64,000 nt of DNA. It comes from Candidatus Pyrohabitans jungbluthii. GTDB lineage: Archaea > Hydrothermarchaeota > Hydrothermarchaeia > Hydrothermarchaeales > BMS3B. The first letter of the stretch is position 1; every line of letters starts with the position of its first letter. The notes below the pieces were generated by a model that searched no databases, was not told where the DNA came from, and saw only the letters and a list, made by a program, of their open reading frames with translations. Location of the stretch: assembly GCA_002010065.2 (NCBI GenBank), contig MTMD02000005.1, positions 22,180 to 86,179 on the forward strand, in the 5' to 3' direction. A program made the translations under genes and the position numbers. Shown here one piece after another: positions 234 through 6,914 of this stretch.

Positions 234-1973
234 ATGGCAGCGATGGAAGAGGACCACCTGGAGTTCCAGCTGAAACAGGTTAACCCTGAGGAGACGCTGG
301 AGGAGCAGTTTGTTAGAAACAAGCAGACCTACCTGTTCTACAAGTTAGCGTGGATACAGGAATTCTTTGATAAAAAGAAGCTCGCACAGGAGCTGGCTTT
401 TCTGGTTATGATGATATACATCTACGACTTTATAGACCGCCTTGGCATGCGCTTCGCTGATCGAATTCTCAACTTCCTGTCCTTTACAGGCTGGCCACTG
501 GACAAGTTCCGCTCCCTTATGGGACTCAACCTTGAAGCCAAGATAGCCATGGCTGTTGCGCTTGAGTATCCCGAGAAAACCCAGGAGGAGCAGGAGAAGA
601 TTGTAGAGCTGGTAACCACCGCCTACTCATGGCTCGGTTTGGCGAGGGAGCAGGAGTGGGACATTGCTCGCGTTGTAAAGCAGAAGCGATGGCTGTACTC
701 GCTTCTCAACTCAGAGCCGGAGCAGAAGCGCCGCGAGCTCATTGAGAAGCTGCGCGAGGAGGGAGGAAAGCGAGTAGAGCTCAACCTTGTGAACATCGGC
801 ATAGTGCCCACCGAGCTATGCCCCAACAGGTGCCGCTTCTGCTTGGCGGCGTGGAAGGCGAGTTGCGAGGAGAGGATAGGGCGAAGCATAAGCGAAGAGG
901 AGTTTGAGGTTATAGCGGACGAGGTTATAAACTTCGCCGACGAGCACTCGCTCATCGTTACGGTAACCGGCGGCGAGCCGTTCTTAGAGCTGGAACGTGT
1001 GCTCTACCTAGTGAAGCATGCACGCTCTCGCTTGGATATAACCACCAGCGCCTACTGGGCTCGCGATATTGGCAAAGCTAGGGAGATCTTGGCAAAGCTG
1101 CGCGATGCCGCGAAGGAAAACCGCAATGAGAACTTCAAGTTCACGTTGCAGGTTAGCCTGGACGCCTTCCATCAGGAGGTGTTCTTTGAGAAGGGCGAGT
1201 TTGTGCAGAACGTGCCCATAGAGTGCATAATTAACCTGCTGAAGCTGACGCAGGAGGAGTTCCCGGAGATTGAGGTGGTGCTTCTTACCAAGCTTACATC
1301 CTACGAGGATCCCCTTGCAAGGCTCATAAAGCTGCTGGAGAAGCAGGGGATGAAGGTCAAGCTTACGCGAAAGGTGACTCAGCCCGGGGTGACTGTGAGC
1401 CTCCTGGACGAGGAGCGCAATCTCGTAGCGAAGCCTGCGCTGCTCAAGGCTTACCTCGAGTTTGAGGGTACTGAGGGCAAGCCGGTGCTTATCTTCTACA
1501 CTGTCGTGGAGAGCATGGGCAAGGCCTCAGCGCTGGACGCCTTCGAGTTTCCTGGATTCAGAGAGCAGGTGCAGGAGCTTCTCAAGGGCAAGAGTGAGAT
1601 TAAGCTTCCGCTTATAGGCCTCGAGGTGAGCGACGACGGCAACGTTTACCCTGGGGCACATTCCCTCTACGCGTGGAGCGCTGGCAACCTCCTCGAAGAG
1701 GGATTAGAGGATATATATGAGCGCCTGAGCTATGACCCTCTCATAATCGCCCTCGCCGAAGCACCAGAGAAGATTTTCGCAATAGCAAAGGAGGTGGAGG
1801 GCGAACGTATTGACGTGATTGCCGTGAAGGAGTCCTCACCTTTAGCGGCGGCGTACAAGATTTTAGAAGCCCCCTGGATGCGCCTGTATATCACGCGACG
1901 CCTTCTCGGTGAGCCTCAGGATAAGGCACAGGAGGAGTACCAGAAATACAAGGAGGAGTACCGCCCAGAATAA
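234..1973 (+). CDS. Radical SAM protein with long helical N-terminal extension
   Basis: CPNRCRFC (CxxxCxxC), TGGEPF, SLDAFH; C-terminal EVSDDGNVYPG…AGNL resembles a Cys-less SPASM/Twitch remnant. Confidence 0.85.
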   Translation: MAAMEEDHLEFQLKQVNPEETLEEQFVRNKQTYLFYKLAWIQEFFDKKKLAQELAFLVMMIYIYDFIDRLGMRFADRILNFLSFTGWPLDKFRSLMGLNLEAKIAMAVALEYPEKTQEEQEKIVELVTTAYSWLGLAREQEWDIARVVKQKRWLYSLLNSEPEQKRRELIEKLREEGGKRVELNLVNIGIVPTELCPNRCRFCLAAWKASCEERIGRSISEEEFEVIADEVINFADEHSLIVTVTGGEPFLELERVLYLVKHARSRLDITTSAYWARDIGKAREILAKLRDAAKENRNENFKFTLQVSLDAFHQEVFFEKGEFVQNVPIECIINLLKLTQEEFPEIEVVLLTKLTSYEDPLARLIKLLEKQGMKVKLTRKVTQPGVTVSLLDEERNLVAKPALLKAYLEFEGTEGKPVLIFYTVVESMGKASALDAFEFPGFREQVQELLKGKSEIKLPLIGLEVSDDGNVYPGAHSLYAWSAGNLLEEGLEDIYERLSYDPLIIALAEAPEKIFAIAKEVEGERIDVIAVKESSPLAAAYKILEAPWMRLYITRRLLGEPQDKAQEEYQKYKEEYRPE

Positions 1974-2032: not shown

Positions 2033-2047
2033 CACAAAGTTATAAAT
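2033..2047 (+). promoter_or_regulatory. BRE/TATA promoter for the small peptide gene
   Basis: cacaaag-TTATAAAT about 35 nt upstream of ATG 2082; SD GGGTGAT at 2072-2078. Confidence 0.65.
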
Positions 2048-2081
2048 ATCCCACAGAATCAAAAATAGTCAGGGTGATTAA

Positions 2082-2150
2082 ATGAAAATCGTGAAGAAGG
2101 AGAAGAAAGTCGCATATGCGACCTGCAAGTGTCACAAGAGCTGCATGTAG
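2082..2150 (+). CDS. Putative RiPP precursor peptide, 22 aa MKIVKKEKKVAYATCKCHKSCM
   Basis: Manually translated (below the ORF-track cutoff); SD, TATA, downstream T-tract; Lys-rich leader-like N-terminus and CxCxxxC C-terminus; lies upstream of an RRE-rSAM-SPASM gene. Confidence 0.75.
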   Translation: MKIVKKEKKVAYATCKCHKSCM

Positions 2151-2169
2151 CTCTTTTTCTTTTATTTTT
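2151..2169 (+). terminator. Oligo-T terminator/attenuator after the precursor gene
   Basis: ctctttttcttttattttt immediately after TAG. Confidence 0.55.
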
Positions 2170-2180
2170 GAGGTGATGGC

Positions 2181-2321
2181 ATGGACTTAACCGAAGAGAT
2201 TCGAGCGAGAGTGTGCAAGCGCTGCGACTTCTACAAAGAGGGTGAAACTCTAGAGTGCGCCGCCTTTAAGACGGCAAAGCGCTTGGTTGAGCAGGGCAGG
2301 ATTAGTTTGGACGAGATATAA
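2181..2321 (+). CDS. 46-aa Cys-containing protein MDLTEEIRARVCKRCDFYKEGETLECAAFKTAKRLVEQGRISLDEI
   Basis: Manually translated; strong SD GAGGTGA at 2170-2176; CxxC…C motif; ends 13 nt before the maturase ATG. Confidence 0.75.
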   Translation: MDLTEEIRARVCKRCDFYKEGETLECAAFKTAKRLVEQGRISLDEI

Positions 2322-2334
2322 ACTGCGCATTGCC

Positions 2335-3516
2335 ATGTACCCCAGACTTAAGAACTGTGTGCTTCGCGCAGGCGAGGGCTATTTTCTTTACAACTACGTT
2401 GAGGATGAGGTTTACGAGCTTGACCTCGAAGCGATGGAGCTGCTGCGCCGCTTCACAGGGAAAAACAGCCTCGAAGCTCTTGCCCGTGAATTTGGAGAGA
2501 AAGAGGTAAGGGAGGCGGTGGAGTACCTTCTGAGCGAGGGGTGCCTCGTTGATGAGCGTTGCGAGGATGCGCCGCAAAGCTTCGCCGTCGAGGGCTTTAC
2601 ACCATCGCTGCGCTACCTCCAGCTTCACATCACAGAGCGGTGCAACTTAGCATGCAGGCACTGCTACCTGGGCGAGAAGTCGCAGGTTGATCTGCCCAAG
2701 GAGCTGGCGTTTAAGGCTGTGGAGGAGTTCTCCAGCTTTGGATGGAAGCTTTTAATCACAGGGGGCGAGCCCCTGCTTTCCCCATACTTCTGGAAGCTGG
2801 CAAGCTTCGCTTCTCGCCAAGGGGTACGCGTGGTGGTGCTCACCAACGGCACGCTTGTCAGCGAAGCTACGGCGAAGAAGCTGGCTGAGCATGTGCATGA
2901 GGTGCAGATTAGTTTAGACGGCATTAAGCGTGGGCATGAAGTGCTACGTGGAGAGGGAAGTTTCGCCAAAGCTGTGCGCGGAATAAGGGCGGCGAGCAAA
3001 TATATGAGGGTGAGTGTTGCTACCATGATTCACCGGGAGAATCTAAAAGAATTCCCGCAGCTTGAGAAGCTTGTTAAAAGCCTGGGTGTAGAGGAGTGGA
3101 GCCTGGATGTACCCTCGCCGAAGGGGAGTCTGCTGGAAAATACAGAGCTTCTTCCACCCCGCGAAGAGGCGGCGCGGATATACTCGAGGTACGGCTTCTC
3201 CTCAGGCGTGCATGAGGGCAGCGCCGACTATGCGTGCGGCGCTCATCTGTGTTCAGTCAATGTCAAGGGCGAGGTGACGAAGTGCGGATTCTTTGAGCGC
3301 GGAGTGGGCAACCTTGCAGAAATTTCACTTAAGGAGGGCTGGGAGAGGATAGTTGAGAACTACCTGCCAAAGCTGAGCGAACTCGCTTGTGCAGGTTGCA
3401 AATACCTCAGCGCCTGCAGGGGCGGGTGCAGATTCAGGGCGCTAAGCGAGGGAGACTTTTGGGGCAAAGATAGCTTTCTATGCCTTCTCCACTCAAAGAT
3501 GCACAGTCTTCAGTGA
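2335..3516 (+). CDS. Radical SAM/SPASM peptide maturase with N-terminal RRE (PqqD-like) domain
   Basis: N-terminal YFLYNYVEDEVYELD…LLRRFTG…SLEALAREF…VEYLLSEG (RRE-like); CNLACRHC; TGGEP; SPASM C…GEVTKC…GNL…CAGCKYLSACRGGC…C; start moved to ATG 2335. Confidence 0.88.
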   Translation: MYPRLKNCVLRAGEGYFLYNYVEDEVYELDLEAMELLRRFTGKNSLEALAREFGEKEVREAVEYLLSEGCLVDERCEDAPQSFAVEGFTPSLRYLQLHITERCNLACRHCYLGEKSQVDLPKELAFKAVEEFSSFGWKLLITGGEPLLSPYFWKLASFASRQGVRVVVLTNGTLVSEATAKKLAEHVHEVQISLDGIKRGHEVLRGEGSFAKAVRGIRAASKYMRVSVATMIHRENLKEFPQLEKLVKSLGVEEWSLDVPSPKGSLLENTELLPPREEAARIYSRYGFSSGVHEGSADYACGAHLCSVNVKGEVTKCGFFERGVGNLAEISLKEGWERIVENYLPKLSELACAGCKYLSACRGGCRFRALSEGDFWGKDSFLCLLHSKMHSLQ

Positions 3517-3890
3517 CCCCTCATAGCCACTGCTTTCTTAAACTCTTCCCAGCCTATGGCAACATCTAACGTATACCCCTCCCCTGCCATTGCCTTCATC
3601 ATGTTCATAACCTTCTCTCTGAGTTTTTCCTTCCCAAGCTCTTCCACCTCCTCATGCTCCTCCGGGAAGTAGTAAACCATGAGCCTCTCCCCCATGTCGT
3701 GGTAAAGCAGGGGAATTTCATAGCGATTGAGCTTTCCGCACCTCTCACAGGCAGCGATATTGAGTTCCTGTTTGAAGAGTTTACCCTTCAGCTCCGGGTC
3801 GAGGGTGACATTTACGCTGTGGTAAAGCGCAGCCTCAACCTCGCTCCCGCACCACCCGCATTTCAGTTTGTAAACCCCAACCTGAGTCAT
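3510..3890 (-). CDS. CpXC-domain zinc-ribbon protein
   Basis: CGWCG…SVNVTLDPELK…CERCG…LLYHD pattern. Confidence 0.75.
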   Translation of the reverse strand: MTQVGVYKLKCGWCGSEVEAALYHSVNVTLDPELKGKLFKQELNIAACERCGKLNRYEIPLLYHDMGERLMVYYFPEEHEEVEELGKEKLREKVMNMMKAMAGEGYTLDVAIGWEEFKKAVAMRGH

Positions 3891-3998: not shown

Positions 3999-5618
3999 TT
4001 AAAACTCCGGCATTGACGGCATCTCTGATTTCTCACCTTCCTTCTCCTTCTCAAGCTTGCTTGCAGCGATTATGTCGTCTATTCGCAGTATCATCACCGC
4101 GACCTCGCTCGCTGATGAGATCGCCTGCGTTTTGACGCACACCGGCGTTATAAGCCCTGCCTCGAAAGTGTCCTTGAGCTCGCCAGTGGTTACGTCGTAG
4201 CCGTAGTCAGGGCCCTTCTCGTGGGCTTTTCTCAGTTCTACCAGCACGTCGATGGGGTCAAGGCCGGCGTTCTCCGCCAGAGCGCGGGGTATTGCTTCAA
4301 TGGCGTCCGCAAACGCTTCTATTGCAAGCTGCTCGCGCCCGCCCACTGTAACAGCGTAATCCCTCAGCCTGAGTGCCACCTCCACCTCGGGTGCACCTGC
4401 TCCAGCTACAACTTTGCCTGCGCGTATCGCCGCGGCTACAACGCCTATCGCATCCTCAATGGCGCGCTCCGCCTCGTTCACGACGTGCTCAGTACCGCCT
4501 CGCACAAGTATTGTAACCGCCTTTGGATCCTTGCAGTCCCGCACGAATACCATCTCATCGTCGCCTATCTTAACTTCCTCTACCACACCTGCGTAGCCTA
4601 AATCAGCACTGCTCAAGTCCTCAAGGCTTGAGACTATCTTCGCTCCCGTGGCCTTAGCCAGCTTCTTCATATCGCTCTCCTTAACCCTGCGCACAGCAAA
4701 AATGCCCTCCTTGGCAAGGAAGTGCTGGGCTAGGTCGTCTATACCCTTCTGGCACAGCACAACATTAGCTCCGCTCGCTTTAATCTTCTCCACCATGCTG
4801 CGGAGCATGCGCTCCTCTTCGTCCATAAACGCCTGAAGCTGGTCGGGAGCGGTTATGTTGATTTTCGCATCCACCTCCGTCTTCTTAACTTCCAGCGCAG
4901 ACTTTATCAGTGCAATCTTAGCCTCCTTCACCGAGCGGGGCATTCCAGCATGCACCTTCTCCTTGTCCAGAACAATGCCATTCACCAGCTGGGTATCCTC
5001 TATACCACCGCCCGCCTTCTTCTCTATCTTTATTAAATCCCTGTCAACTACGCTATCCTCGCGCACCTTCTGCACAGCTTCTACGACTATGCTTGCAAGG
5101 TGCTCCTTCGCCTTCTCTGCCCCCTTGCCAGTCATCGCCATTATAGCAACCTTCTTCAGCATTTCCGCGTCGTCGGGAGAAATCTCGTGTGCCATTTCAT
5201 TGAGAATCTCCCTCGCCTTTTCAGCGGCCATGCGGTAACCCCTTGCAATAAGCGTCGCATGAACTTCCTGGTCAAGGAGCTCTTCTGCACGTTTTAGAAG
5301 TTCGCCCGCAAGCACCACCGCGGTGGTTGTGCCGTCGCCAACCTCGCTCTCCTGGGTTTTGGCGATCTCCACTATCATCTTGCCCACAGGGTGCTCTATG
5401 TCCATCTCTTTGAGTATCGTCACGCCGTCGTTGGTTATTGTGACATCGCCTAGGCTATCGACGAGCATCTTGTCCATTCCTCTCGGCCCGAGGGTGGTTC
5501 TCAGTGTCTCAGCTATTATCCTCGCTACCATTATGTTTGTGCGCCTCGCTTCACTACCACGGGTACGCTGCGTACCCTCCTTGAGTATCAGTACAGGCTG
5601 CCCTCCCATTGTTGCCAT
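3999..5618 (-). CDS. ths: Thermosome (group II chaperonin) subunit
   Basis: [26 protein letters not shown]; SD GGAGGTG favours start at 5618. Confidence 0.97.
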
Positions 5619-5717
5619 CACATCAAACACCTCCATCTCCATTATAATAAATAATGGTTAGAAAAATATTAACGGGGTGGTTTTTATTTTTTGCGCTCCC
5701 CTCGCAAGGTTATTCCT

Positions 5718-6914
5718 TCAAACCTTTATTTTTTCATACTTTAGGAGGTAGGCGAGGATGAGCCCTATGATGAATGCCCATGCTAAGTTGCTCATAAGCG
5801 TAATACCCAGCATCACCAGGGGCACGTAGAACTCCCTCTTTCCTTTTAAGTCCTTTATCATCGTCATAAGCTCTGCGCCTGCGATGAAAAGGAGCACGCC
5901 TAAGATTGAGAAGGGCAGAAGCTTTATTATCTCTATTGAGCTTTCTCCGAAGAGTATAGCAACGCCAAGGAAGAAGCTTCCTATTATTATGTTGTTCCCC
6001 GCGGTGCGTGCCCCGAAGCGGTAGTGCGCGGCTAAGCCACCTGCGCCATGGCACATGGGCATGCCCTTTAACAGGAAGGAGCCGATGTTTGCTAACCCCT
6101 GACTTATGGAGAGAGCCCTGTAGGTTACTCTGTTTGCCCTACCGCCGAAGTAGCTCTTCGCCAGGTCGTGCTGGGCGATTACCGCATTGCCGAGGGTCAT
6201 GGGAATCTGGGGGAGCACCAGAAGGAAGAAGGCGGTAACAAAATCGTCAACGCTCGGCATGCCCTCGAGAAAAATTGGCCTGGGGAGGTGCACGCCGAGA
6301 GCCACGTGGGGGGTTTCAAAGGCCAAGCCTACCAGGAAACCCCCAATCACTATTATAAGAGCAGCCGGCGCACGTCTGTTCTCAAGGAGGAGGTATGCCA
6401 CCGCTAAGCTTGCCACCCCCAGCAGGAAGTAGACGCTTACATCGCCTATACCAAGCTCAGCTAGCTTAAACTGGTAGCTTGGAACAACCTCTGAGCTTGG
6501 GGGCGCCTTTATGAATTCCAGGCCACGGATAAGTAGCAGCGTGCCCACGCTGAGCTGCACCCCTCTGACGACGGTCTTGGGAACATACCGGCTGAGTTCT
6601 ATTAAACCCGTGGCTCCGAGAAACAGCAAGATAGCACCCACGAGGAGGGCGGCGGCGTAGATTATGTTAGGAGTTATCATGGCATAGTTTGCTATTGCGT
6701 AGGCGCCGATAACCTTCATGGGCTGCACCGGCGTAGGCACGCGGTAGTAGGCTCCAGCGAGGATGTAAAAAAGCCCCACCATGAAGAACAGGCCTACAGC
6801 GCTCACGCCATTGAGAAGGATCATTCCCAGGGCGAGAGGTAGAAGCGTGCCTAGGTCGCCAAGTGAACCTGCAGCTTCCATCCTGTCAAACCTGTAATGC
6901 TTGCCTATCTGCAT
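5718..6914 (-). CDS. MOT1-family molybdate (sulfate) transporter
   Basis: GSLGDLGT, PVQPMK, PMCHGAGGLAAHYRFGART motifs; many TM helices. Confidence 0.88.
   Translation of the reverse strand: MQIGKHYRFDRMEAAGSLGDLGTLLPLALGMILLNGVSAVGLFFMVGLFYILAGAYYRVPTPVQPMKVIGAYAIANYAMITPNIIYAAALLVGAILLFLGATGLIELSRYVPKTVVRGVQLSVGTLLLIRGLEFIKAPPSSEVVPSYQFKLAELGIGDVSVYFLLGVASLAVAYLLLENRRAPAALIIVIGGFLVGLAFETPHVALGVHLPRPIFLEGMPSVDDFVTAFFLLVLPQIPMTLGNAVIAQHDLAKSYFGGRANRVTYRALSISQGLANIGSFLLKGMPMCHGAGGLAAHYRFGARTAGNNIIIGSFFLGVAILFGESSIEIIKLLPFSILGVLLFIAGAELMTMIKDLKGKREFYVPLVMLGITLMSNLAWAFIIGLILAYLLKYEKIKV

Follow-up and report, generated by a model that had tools for sequence, protein, structure and literature searches.

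What are two reading frames of only 22 and 46 amino acids (aa) doing directly in front of a radical S-adenosylmethionine (SAM) enzyme gene? The question is raised by a 64,000-nucleotide stretch of the genome of Candidatus Pyrohabitans jungbluthii, a member of the Hydrothermarchaeota (assembly GCA_002010065.2, contig MTMD02000005.1, positions 22,180 to 86,179 of the forward strand); the whole of this stretch is called the window here, and positions are counted from its first letter. A sequence-only reading of the locus had proposed that the first open reading frame (ORF) encodes the precursor of a ribosomally synthesised peptide that is modified post-translationally (RiPP), the second a CxxC helper, and the gene behind them a maturase composed of a RiPP recognition element (RRE), a radical-SAM core and a SPASM domain, i.e., a new archaeal RiPP system. 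Both short ORFs and the 393-aa radical-SAM/SPASM gene are present (Table 1), and the reader's impression that the precursor family was unfamiliar was borne out, in that the curated families of Pfam and NCBIfam, at their cutoffs, name none of peptide, helper or enzyme. The reading favoured here, which we regard as probable rather than certain, is that the three genes form a self-contained peptide-maturation cassette of precursor, CxxC...C helper and RRE/radical-SAM/SPASM enzyme, the product of which would have a place in metal or thiol handling. The cassette is well supported as a gene system and unproven as chemistry.

Judged by its sequence comparisons, the 22-aa ORF is a translated gene and not a chance frame. 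The sequence-only reading had staked its proposal on a conserved short Cys-rich ORF beside homologous maturases, and when the loci around such enzymes were fetched and searched with tblastn and pattern scans, this ORF was found at 11 of the 16 archaeal orthologue loci and at 18 of 23 more distant loci (22 bacterial and one from the Methanobacteriota). The pattern used was a strict one (a start, any residue, I, any residue, K or R, and later CxC...C and a stop); 17 of the distant peptides follow it, the eighteenth, at L047, having V at position 3, and it occurred at none of 71 control loci taken around other radical-SAM/SPASM genes. In the distant loci the ORF encodes 20-21 aa and lies immediately upstream or downstream of the enzyme gene, as in MKIKKVKRVSRGMCKCKSSC. 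All counts in this work come from metagenome-assembled genomes with short contigs, so that absences are weak: one archaeal locus (L006) is truncated by a contig end, a contig edge falls where the peptide gene would be expected in two of the five distant exceptions (L032 and L046), and in genome G043 the peptide and helper genes lie 1.7-1.9 kb upstream of the enzyme, just beyond the first flank. Elsewhere the peptide gene was located at another place in the genome (in those of the distant loci L038 and L039, and in the relatives G005 and G036), and one archaeal locus (L016) carries two copies. In G036 the canonical, unlinked copy is on contig C129, and a possible divergent peptide (..VKIRKNDNSTCKQNCCKRTF) was also noticed about 0.5 kb downstream of the enzyme gene (L015, 3206-3277, plus strand).

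The discriminating power of the pattern can be seen in the 1.99-Mb genome as a whole, where it was found in six frames at 2 sites, both of them true copies, whereas a looser pattern of the tail gave 27 sites, of which 2 were real. In an alignment of 31 peptides M1, C17 and C21 are invariant, I3, K5, C15, K16 and S20 are kept in at least 90%, and the length stays at 20-22 aa across two domains of life. Among the 12 archaeal copies of 22 codons, pairwise differences numbered 428, 332 and 750 at the first, second and third codon positions, and 392 codon differences were synonymous; the 30 matches with E <= 1e-5, like the copies that were re-read, included none interrupted by a frameshift or a stop. 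The GGGTGAT and GAGGTGA sites, the TATA-like box and the T-tract after the stop that the sequence-only reading had listed were all located, the promoter being a matter of sequence reading alone. A GGAGG/GGTGA-type site stands a few bases ahead of the peptide start in nearly every locus inspected, and TATA-like boxes occur 30-40 nucleotides (nt) ahead of it at L002, L003, L008 and L016 as well. The T-tract, which had been taken as an attenuator between precursor and maturase, is present in the window and is a feature of part of the family only, standing behind 5 of the 12 archaeal copies; behind several of the bacterial copies inspected stand G+C-rich hairpins with a T run (judged by eye and uncounted). 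It is the family conservation, the third-position and synonymous variation, the ribosome-binding site and the empty control loci that identify the ORF as a gene. It is barely credible that the small ORFs are instead frames open by chance or that they regulate the radical-SAM gene as upstream ORFs. They are very short, and gene callers rarely annotate an ORF of 22 aa, but their third codon positions vary under an amino-acid sequence that is conserved in archaea and bacteria alike, the peptide ORF has a ribosome-binding site of its own, and unlinked extra copies exist; moreover, many bacteria have it downstream of the enzyme gene, a position in which it could not act as an upstream ORF.

Peptide and enzyme are distributed together. 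Orthologues of the enzyme (E <= 2.2e-123, the next-best match being at 9.3e-31) were found in 16 of 61 related genomes, and in 13 of the 34 of the same order, whereas a peptide profile run over the same 61 genomes matched 19, each with a best E <= 2.1e-5. Both were present in 15 genomes and neither was found in 41; the enzyme without the peptide was seen in one genome only (G002, where the enzyme gene is cut by a contig end), and the peptide without the enzyme in four (G001, G017, G018 and G029). Because the related genomes are not independent, no statistic is given for this table. Among its named relatives, the enzyme is closest to a protein of Candidatus Pyrohabitans (81% identity). A scan of public genome contigs added 23 further full-length homologues of 35-45% identity, from a Methanobacteriota archaeon and from Nitrospirota, Desulfobacterales, Syntrophaceae, Geobacteraceae, Actinomycetota (including Candidatus Solincola), Rokuibacteriota and Dehalococcoidia. 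The description of the system as archaeal could therefore not be upheld, since full-length homologues with the same peptide occur in all of these bacterial groups.

The enzyme has, as far as sequence comparison and modelling can tell, the architecture of an RRE-dependent RiPP maturase. The start chosen by the ORF program (TTG at 2287) was rejected, as the orthologues open with MYPRLKN or MYPKLKN. Pfam finds the radical-SAM core alone (E 4.2e-22), its SPASM model giving no match at E <= 0.1; C103, C107 and C110 of the CxxxCxxC motif are invariant in 20 aligned family members, and so, in the same alignment, are C301, G312, C317, C352, C355, C361, C365 and C383 of the SPASM motif, so that the full SPASM domain which had been claimed is complete with its seven invariant Cys. 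Among the 78 NCBIfam families listed for the enzyme none comes near its cutoff, the best being the heme b synthase AhbD (118.9 bits against 500). The mycofactocin maturase model MftC (TIGR03962) reaches 89.8 bits against 265, in one continuous alignment over core and SPASM (residues 96-365); AlbA and AmcB lie outside the best 25 families for the window's enzyme. Three bacterial homologues are likewise below the curated cutoffs, with PqqE (TIGR02109) at 46-64 bits against 381, AlbA at 43-63 against 850 and, in one of them, AmcB at 47.5 against 425.

An AlphaFold model of the whole enzyme (predicted local distance difference test score, pLDDT, 91.8; predicted template-modelling score 0.90) found its best folds in the Protein Data Bank (PDB) among SuiB, SkfB and CteB, all three of them radical-SAM enzymes that modify peptides, with a template-modelling (TM) score of 0.73 over about 450 columns to SuiA-bound SuiB. 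By sequence profile, the nearest solved proteins were SkfB (8.1e-25) and CteB (1.2e-16), the latter alignment starting at residue 17, within the N-terminal domain, and running through the core; SuiB was reached at 2.6e-7 only, over the core. The sequence-only reading had called the N-terminus RRE-like and had made this a test of its proposal, and at the level of structure, as modelled, an RRE fold is supported. Residues 1-90, modelled alone with 24 homologues (pLDDT 86.8), form strands 3-5, 8-12, 16-20 and 25-29 followed by helices 31-38, 46-53 and 55-68, and a prediction for residues 1-73 gave four short strands, three helices and then a strand. When this domain was compared with the PDB using Foldseek, the top nine rows were the lasso-peptide leader-binding protein B1 (6jx3_B), five SuiB chains, two TbiB1 chains and MccB, all of them RRE-bearing; 6jx3_B was the best (E 5.7e-3, TM 0.68, root-mean-square deviation 2.3 A, 84 columns), and McbB and CteB, both of which carry RiPP recognition elements, appeared lower in the ranking.

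The 46-aa CxxC protein proved to be a genuine conserved partner. An iterated profile seeded with it detected the helper domain at 27 of the 39 family loci and at none of the 71 controls, with C12, C15 and C26 invariant across 35 helper sequences. At five deltaproteobacterial or Nitrospirota loci the helper is duplicated in tandem within a single protein of about 120-135 aa, at L042 two helper repeats read through without a stop codon into the enzyme, and the independent database clusters P0154 (509 aa) and P0171 (501 aa) are helper-helper-RRE-radical-SAM-SPASM fusions. Among 1.84 billion cluster representatives 303 helper members were found at E <= 0.001, mostly of two domains and 108-146 aa; no Pfam or NCBIfam model matches the helper, which is called 'hypothetical protein' in databases. 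On this comparison of sequences it is a new domain, occurring only beside this enzyme family and sometimes fused to it, and the fusions suggest an enzyme subunit rather than a second substrate. A prediction of the helper-enzyme complex gave a score of 0.00 and, made without control runs, counts neither for nor against binding. A weak resemblance to DUF6171 (E 0.031) was not repeated in 10 other helpers and was dropped. Three longer proteins with the helper domain, P0236 (474 aa), P0290 (416 aa) and P0289 (233 aa), one of them carrying it near the C-terminus, may be other fusions.

The view of a single locus held for the cassette and missed that the peptide gene is multi-copy, with up to four copies per genome, that copies stand beside genes of copper ATPases and cytochrome c maturation, and that the peptide occurs in four genomes in which no maturase was found. 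Thirteen peptide matches adjoin the enzyme and one (G034:C111) adjoins the helper at a contig start, and the 21 other copies were annotated for their neighbours. Six of these lie 20-90 nt downstream, on the same strand, of a heavy-metal P1B ATPase gene (in G022, G032, G017, G029, G034 and G030); two of the six ATPases, with three HMA domains each, score 575 and 586 bits in the copper-ATPase model TIGR01511, above its cutoff of 397, and the remaining four are 41-75% identical to one of that pair. Two more copies adjoin small HMA-domain ORFs (G032:C17 and G018:C58), four have a thioredoxin-like, CcmF or CcmE gene at a distance of no more than about 0.3 kb (G000:C8, G001 and two in G013), another (G022:C261:7917) is 1.2 kb from a thioredoxin-like gene, and six have no recognised neighbour. 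Three directly precede the gene of a flavoprotein of the geranylgeranyl-reductase family (L165, L175 and L177, of G018, G034 and G033), which lies within a few kb of the peptide at four more loci and reaches 72-117 bits in TIGR02032, below the cutoff of 158.8. Within one genome the copies at the cassette and those at the ATPase genes share the same leader and core, so that all copies could be substrates of the one enzyme.

The second copy in the own genome, MRIVKREKKAAYTTCKCHKSCM, is outside the window, on contig C8 at 187597-187662 of the minus strand (locus L111, 5935-6000), 34 nt upstream of a CcmE gene and preceded by a methyltransferase gene and a thioredoxin-like gene. Peptide copies also share a contig stretch with CcmF and CcmE in G022, G032 and G013. 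As a regular partner CcmE was rejected, none of 29 other CcmE loci of the relatives carrying the peptide in its flanks, and it is kept as context only. The own genome holds CcmE twice (C8:187138-187563 and C2:99145-99570), with identical protein and a repeat of about 446 nt at 98.7% that covers the gene only, which could be a recent duplication or an effect of assembly.

From these elements a course of events may be proposed. The RRE domain of the enzyme would bind the basic N-terminal part of the 20-22-aa peptide (M-x-I-x-K-hydrophobic-x-K/R-K) and thereby place the C-K-C-x-x-S-C core into the active site, where a 5'-deoxyadenosyl radical and two auxiliary SPASM clusters would modify it at the three conserved Cys. 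The most likely product would be a small ring system held by intramolecular thioether crosslinks of the sacti- or ranthi-type, and the helper would act as a subunit of the enzyme, possibly as a module binding metal or an Fe-S cluster; electron transfer or a part in handling the peptide are other roles that it may have. Within the core only the three Cys, K16 and S20 are kept throughout the family (31 peptides), and according to their PDB titles the two solved proteins closest in sequence, SkfB and CteB, form Cys thioethers. The conserved Cys of the SPASM domain number seven and not eight, a pattern that in CteB leaves an iron open for a Cys of the substrate to bind. Since Cys alone is conserved and both relatives form Cys thioethers, thioether formation is the specific chemistry that is favoured, at a confidence somewhat short of an even chance; with the enzyme below all curated maturase cutoffs, it is put forward by analogy and not by family assignment. 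A role of the product in cellular metal or thiol handling, for example in the binding of copper(I), would be more likely than an antibiotic one, given that no conserved peptidase or exporter was found, that the peptide is conserved to an extreme degree, and that its neighbourhoods hold copper-ATPase, thioredoxin and Ccm genes.

Several observations weigh against the cassette reading. The sequences show that the genes exist, are conserved and co-occur, and they show the domain architecture, the linkage and fusion of the helper and the neighbouring copper-ATPase genes; from these we infer the substrate relationship, the division into leader and core, the thioether chemistry, the role of the helper and the function in metal handling. 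The isolated N-terminal domain had no Foldseek match in the PDB at E <= 0.001, and its sequence profile alone reached PqqD at E 1.3 only; the whole enzyme stays below every curated maturase cutoff, with StsB at 87.8 bits against 625 and PapB at 71.2 against 340. Twelve of the 39 family loci have no helper in their flanks, of which L006 is cut by a contig end and L012 has its helper just beyond the flank; the other ten are the Nitrospirota-type L032, L034, L037-L040, L045, L048 and L052 and the 'uncultured bacterium' L047, and they suggest that the helper is not always needed or not always linked. The copper-ATPase link is confined to families f5, f8 and f9 of the Hydrothermarchaeales, whose related genomes are not independent observations, and a metal context was seen neither at the window's cassette nor at the bacterial loci examined. 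Finally, four genomes have the peptide and no detected enzyme (G001, 82% complete; G017, 96%; G018, 81%; and G029, 70%), and the helper had no match in them either, in a search that had no positive control of its own and with three of the genomes 70-82% complete. Such genomes would mean that the peptide may work unmodified or that another enzyme may act on it.

The first of these alternatives can be put more sharply: the peptide would be an unmodified metal-binding protein, such as a minimal copper(I) chaperone for CopA, and its place beside the enzyme would reflect the delivery of a metal or cluster, or shared regulation. The archaeal core C-K-C-H-K-S-C-M consists of residues that commonly ligate copper(I), and the six copies directly behind Cu P1B-ATPase genes and two by HMA ORFs, together with the four genomes in which neither maturase nor helper was found, are what such a chaperone would lead one to expect. 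It is nevertheless held to be unlikely. The enzyme carries an RRE-like domain, the only known role of which is to bind precursor peptides; the peptide is present in 15 of the 16 genomes with the enzyme, and the pair is kept across domains of life, whereas three of the four peptide-only genomes are incomplete. Moreover, a comparison with Pfam at E <= 10 gave no family, HMA included, for any of the 31 peptides, and at 20-22 aa they are too short for the ferredoxin-like HMA fold with its MxCxxC. (The same Pfam result disposed of a resemblance to ribosomal protein bL36, which had been suggested by the basic N-terminus and the Cys.) A different proposal accepts the modification and changes its purpose, making the peptide the precursor of an intracellular redox or metal cofactor, as for pyrroloquinoline quinone (PQQ) or mycofactocin, rather than a crosslinked peptide acting as such. 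The very short precursor of fixed length, conserved in archaea and several bacterial phyla, the minimal cassette, the continuous alignment to MftC, which no other curated peptide-maturase model gave over core and SPASM, and the redox and cytochrome-maturation genes next to the peptide genes all speak for it; but the scores for MftC and, in the bacterial homologues, for PqqE are far from their cutoffs, no conserved dependent oxidoreductase stands beside the cassette, the enzyme is patchy within the order, and a cofactor precursor as a rule has a single essential pair of residues, against the three Cys, the K and the S that are kept here. We therefore give the cofactor only a small share of our belief.

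Of the chemistries, the sequence-only reading had also considered a three-residue cyclophane of the triceptide type, formed on an aromatic residue at Y-A-T or H-K-S, and this is now very unlikely. Cyclophane synthases share the RRE/radical-SAM/SPASM architecture, Tyr12 is present in 14 of 14 archaeal 22-mers and His18 is often kept; however, Tyr12 is absent from the forms of 20-21 aa, His18 varies to K, N, S or C, and Trp, Phe and Tyr are all missing from 17 of the 31 peptides, which means that the family's common reaction cannot be a cyclophane formed on an aromatic residue. The distance of the enzymes from AmcB, given above, points in the same direction.

Among known systems, CteB/CteA of Clostridium thermocellum, a sactipeptide synthase and its substrate (5wgg, 5why), is similar in having RRE, radical-SAM core and SPASM domain in a single chain, with a short Cys-containing precursor, and CteB is among the top fold matches for the whole enzyme and for the RRE domain. 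It differs in that identity over the structural alignment is only about 13-19%, that no curated sactipeptide or ranthipeptide model reaches its cutoff, and that the precursor in question has only 20-22 aa with a CxCxxxC core and comes with an additional three-Cys helper, the crosslinks being putative here. SuiB/SuiA, which make streptide (5v1q, 5v1s, 5v1t), provide the best whole-protein fold match, and their RRE matches too; the identity is 14-22%, and SuiB joins Lys to Trp, whereas most peptides of the present family have no aromatic residue. In Methanococcus voltae, CrpC is an archaeal RRE/radical-SAM/SPASM enzyme with an adjacent Cys-rich substrate, CrpA, for which ranthionine thioethers are reported (PMC13692751); CrpC is a member of TIGR04463, a family outside the best 25 for the window's enzyme, and CrpA is large and built of repeats. 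The screen of PMC13692751 covered only proteins of at least 100 aa, so that a 22-aa precursor could not have been found in it. Surveys of archaeal RiPPs, in the parts available, name radical-SAM classes generically only (PMC12144867, PMC13635244). The peptide motifs occur in none of the 8.4 million papers that were searched, and no description of the family was found in the literature, where the supplements of surveys may list such clusters as generic 'ranthipeptide/sactipeptide'.

The systems of MftA/MftB/MftC and PqqA/PqqD/PqqE share with the cassette a very short conserved precursor, an RRE-type module, a radical-SAM/SPASM enzyme and the lack of a dedicated exporter, and PqqE is among the fold matches of the enzyme. 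In contrast to both, the RRE is fused here, the presumed targets are Cys and not Val-Tyr or Glu/Tyr, the precursor ends in ...SC(M), and the helper has no counterpart there. Methanobactins and bufferins are ribosomal peptides with enzymatically altered Cys that serve copper handling; they are bacterial, are made by iron enzymes other than radical-SAM ones (of the DUF692/MNIO type), and have longer precursors with signal or leader peptides. The likeness to them lies in the 8 of 21 non-cassette peptide copies that stand by a copper-ATPase or HMA gene, metal binding by the present peptide being putative. What sets the cassette apart from known RRE-dependent maturases is the precursor of 20-22 aa, the helper domain and the distribution in archaea and bacteria, together with its failure at every curated cutoff tested.

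Table 1. Features of the cassette and its surroundings in the window
Feature	Position	Strand	Remarks
Neighbouring 579-aa radical-SAM gene (CPNRCRFC)	234..1973	+	Beside the cassette in two genera only; probably not obligate
TATA-like box TTATAAATAT with an A/G-rich stretch before it	2040..2049	+	Candidate archaeal promoter of the peptide gene, from sequence reading alone
Shine-Dalgarno-like GGGTGAT	2072..2078	+	3 bases ahead of the peptide ATG; sequence
Precursor peptide gene, 22 aa, MKIVKKEKKVAYATCKCHKSCM	2082..2150	+	Basic N-terminal M-x-I-x-K..., C-terminal C-K-C-x-x-S-C core
T-rich run ctctttttcttttattttt	2151..2169	+	Directly after the peptide TAG stop; candidate partial archaeal terminator between precursor and enzyme genes (putative function)
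Shine-Dalgarno-like GAGGTGA of the helper gene	2170..2176	+	Sequence
Helper gene, 46 aa, MDLTEEIRARVCKRCDFYKEGETLECAAFKTAKRLVEQGRISLDEI	2181..2321	+	New small domain with invariant C12, C15, C26 (CxxC...C)
Radical-SAM/SPASM gene, 393 aa	2335..3516	+	13 bases past the helper ORF; ATG 2335 start shared with orthologues
N-terminal RRE-like (PqqD-like winged-helix) domain of the maturase, residues 1-75	2335..2559	+	Predicted from model, fold matches and CteB profile alignment
Radical-SAM core, about residues 92-260	2608..3114	+	CxxxCxxC at C103/C107/C110 (nt 2641-2664)
SPASM domain	3235..3483	+	7 invariant Cys (C301, C317, C352, C355, C361, C365, C383); Cx10Gx4C ... CxxCx5Cx3C ... C
CpXC protein gene	3510-3890	-	
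Thermosome subunit gene	3999-5642	-	
MOT1-type transporter gene	5718-6914	-	

Around the cassette no neighbour conserved beyond the three genes was found, and no conserved protease, peptidase, exporter or transporter. The 579-aa radical-SAM protein was rejected as an obligate second maturase: its orthologues occur in seven maturase-less genomes (G006, G008, G009, G014, G016, G029 and G035), are on other contigs than the maturase in four more (G011, G013, G022 and G036), and have no peptide in their flanks outside the genera g1 and g2, in which the gene abuts the cassette. With its large N- and C-terminal extensions it reaches no curated family above cutoff, the best being viperin-like and HxsB/HxsC models at about 25 bits; in G006 and G008 its orthologue is about 2 kb from a CcmE gene. 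The gene of the CpXC-family protein, which is zinc-ribbon-like (PF14353, E 5e-23), is convergent with the maturase gene, meeting it at the 3' end, and keeps this position only in the closest relative, L002. At three Nitrospirota loci (L037, L045 and L048) genes for a large TPR protein and a member of the GHMP-kinase family follow the peptide gene, and at L053 (Desulfobacterales) the gene of a response-regulator/TPR protein is nearby. The own genome also holds two adjacent radical-SAM/SPASM paralogues (C15:65458-67102, plus strand; E 5.6e-26 and 1.3e-21 to the query), a pair which recurs in G001, G004 and G009 and is probably a separate maturation system.

Few radical-SAM-modified ribosomal peptides have been characterised in archaea, and the family to which the cassette of Candidatus Pyrohabitans jungbluthii belongs, itself without a name, spans the Hydrothermarchaeota, Methanoperedens-like archaea and at least five bacterial phyla. 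Its precursor is among the shortest known and almost entirely conserved, which makes the chemistry approachable with synthetic peptides, its helper adds a new small Cys domain with 303 cluster representatives, and the peptide genes recurring behind copper-ATPase genes suggest a role in metal handling that can be tested, something that newly found RiPP families seldom offer. A tentative and rather unlikely extension would be that the products represent an ancient and hitherto unknown class of radical-SAM-tailored, Cys-derived metal-handling peptides, each turned with the aid of the helper domain into a compact ligand rich in sulfur, that work with a copper-exporting ATPase and serve or protect thiol-dependent processes of the envelope, such as cytochrome c maturation. 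If this were true, the family would be a radical-SAM counterpart of the methanobactins and bufferins, the first such system in archaea, and one shared by the Hydrothermarchaeota and anaerobic bacteria.

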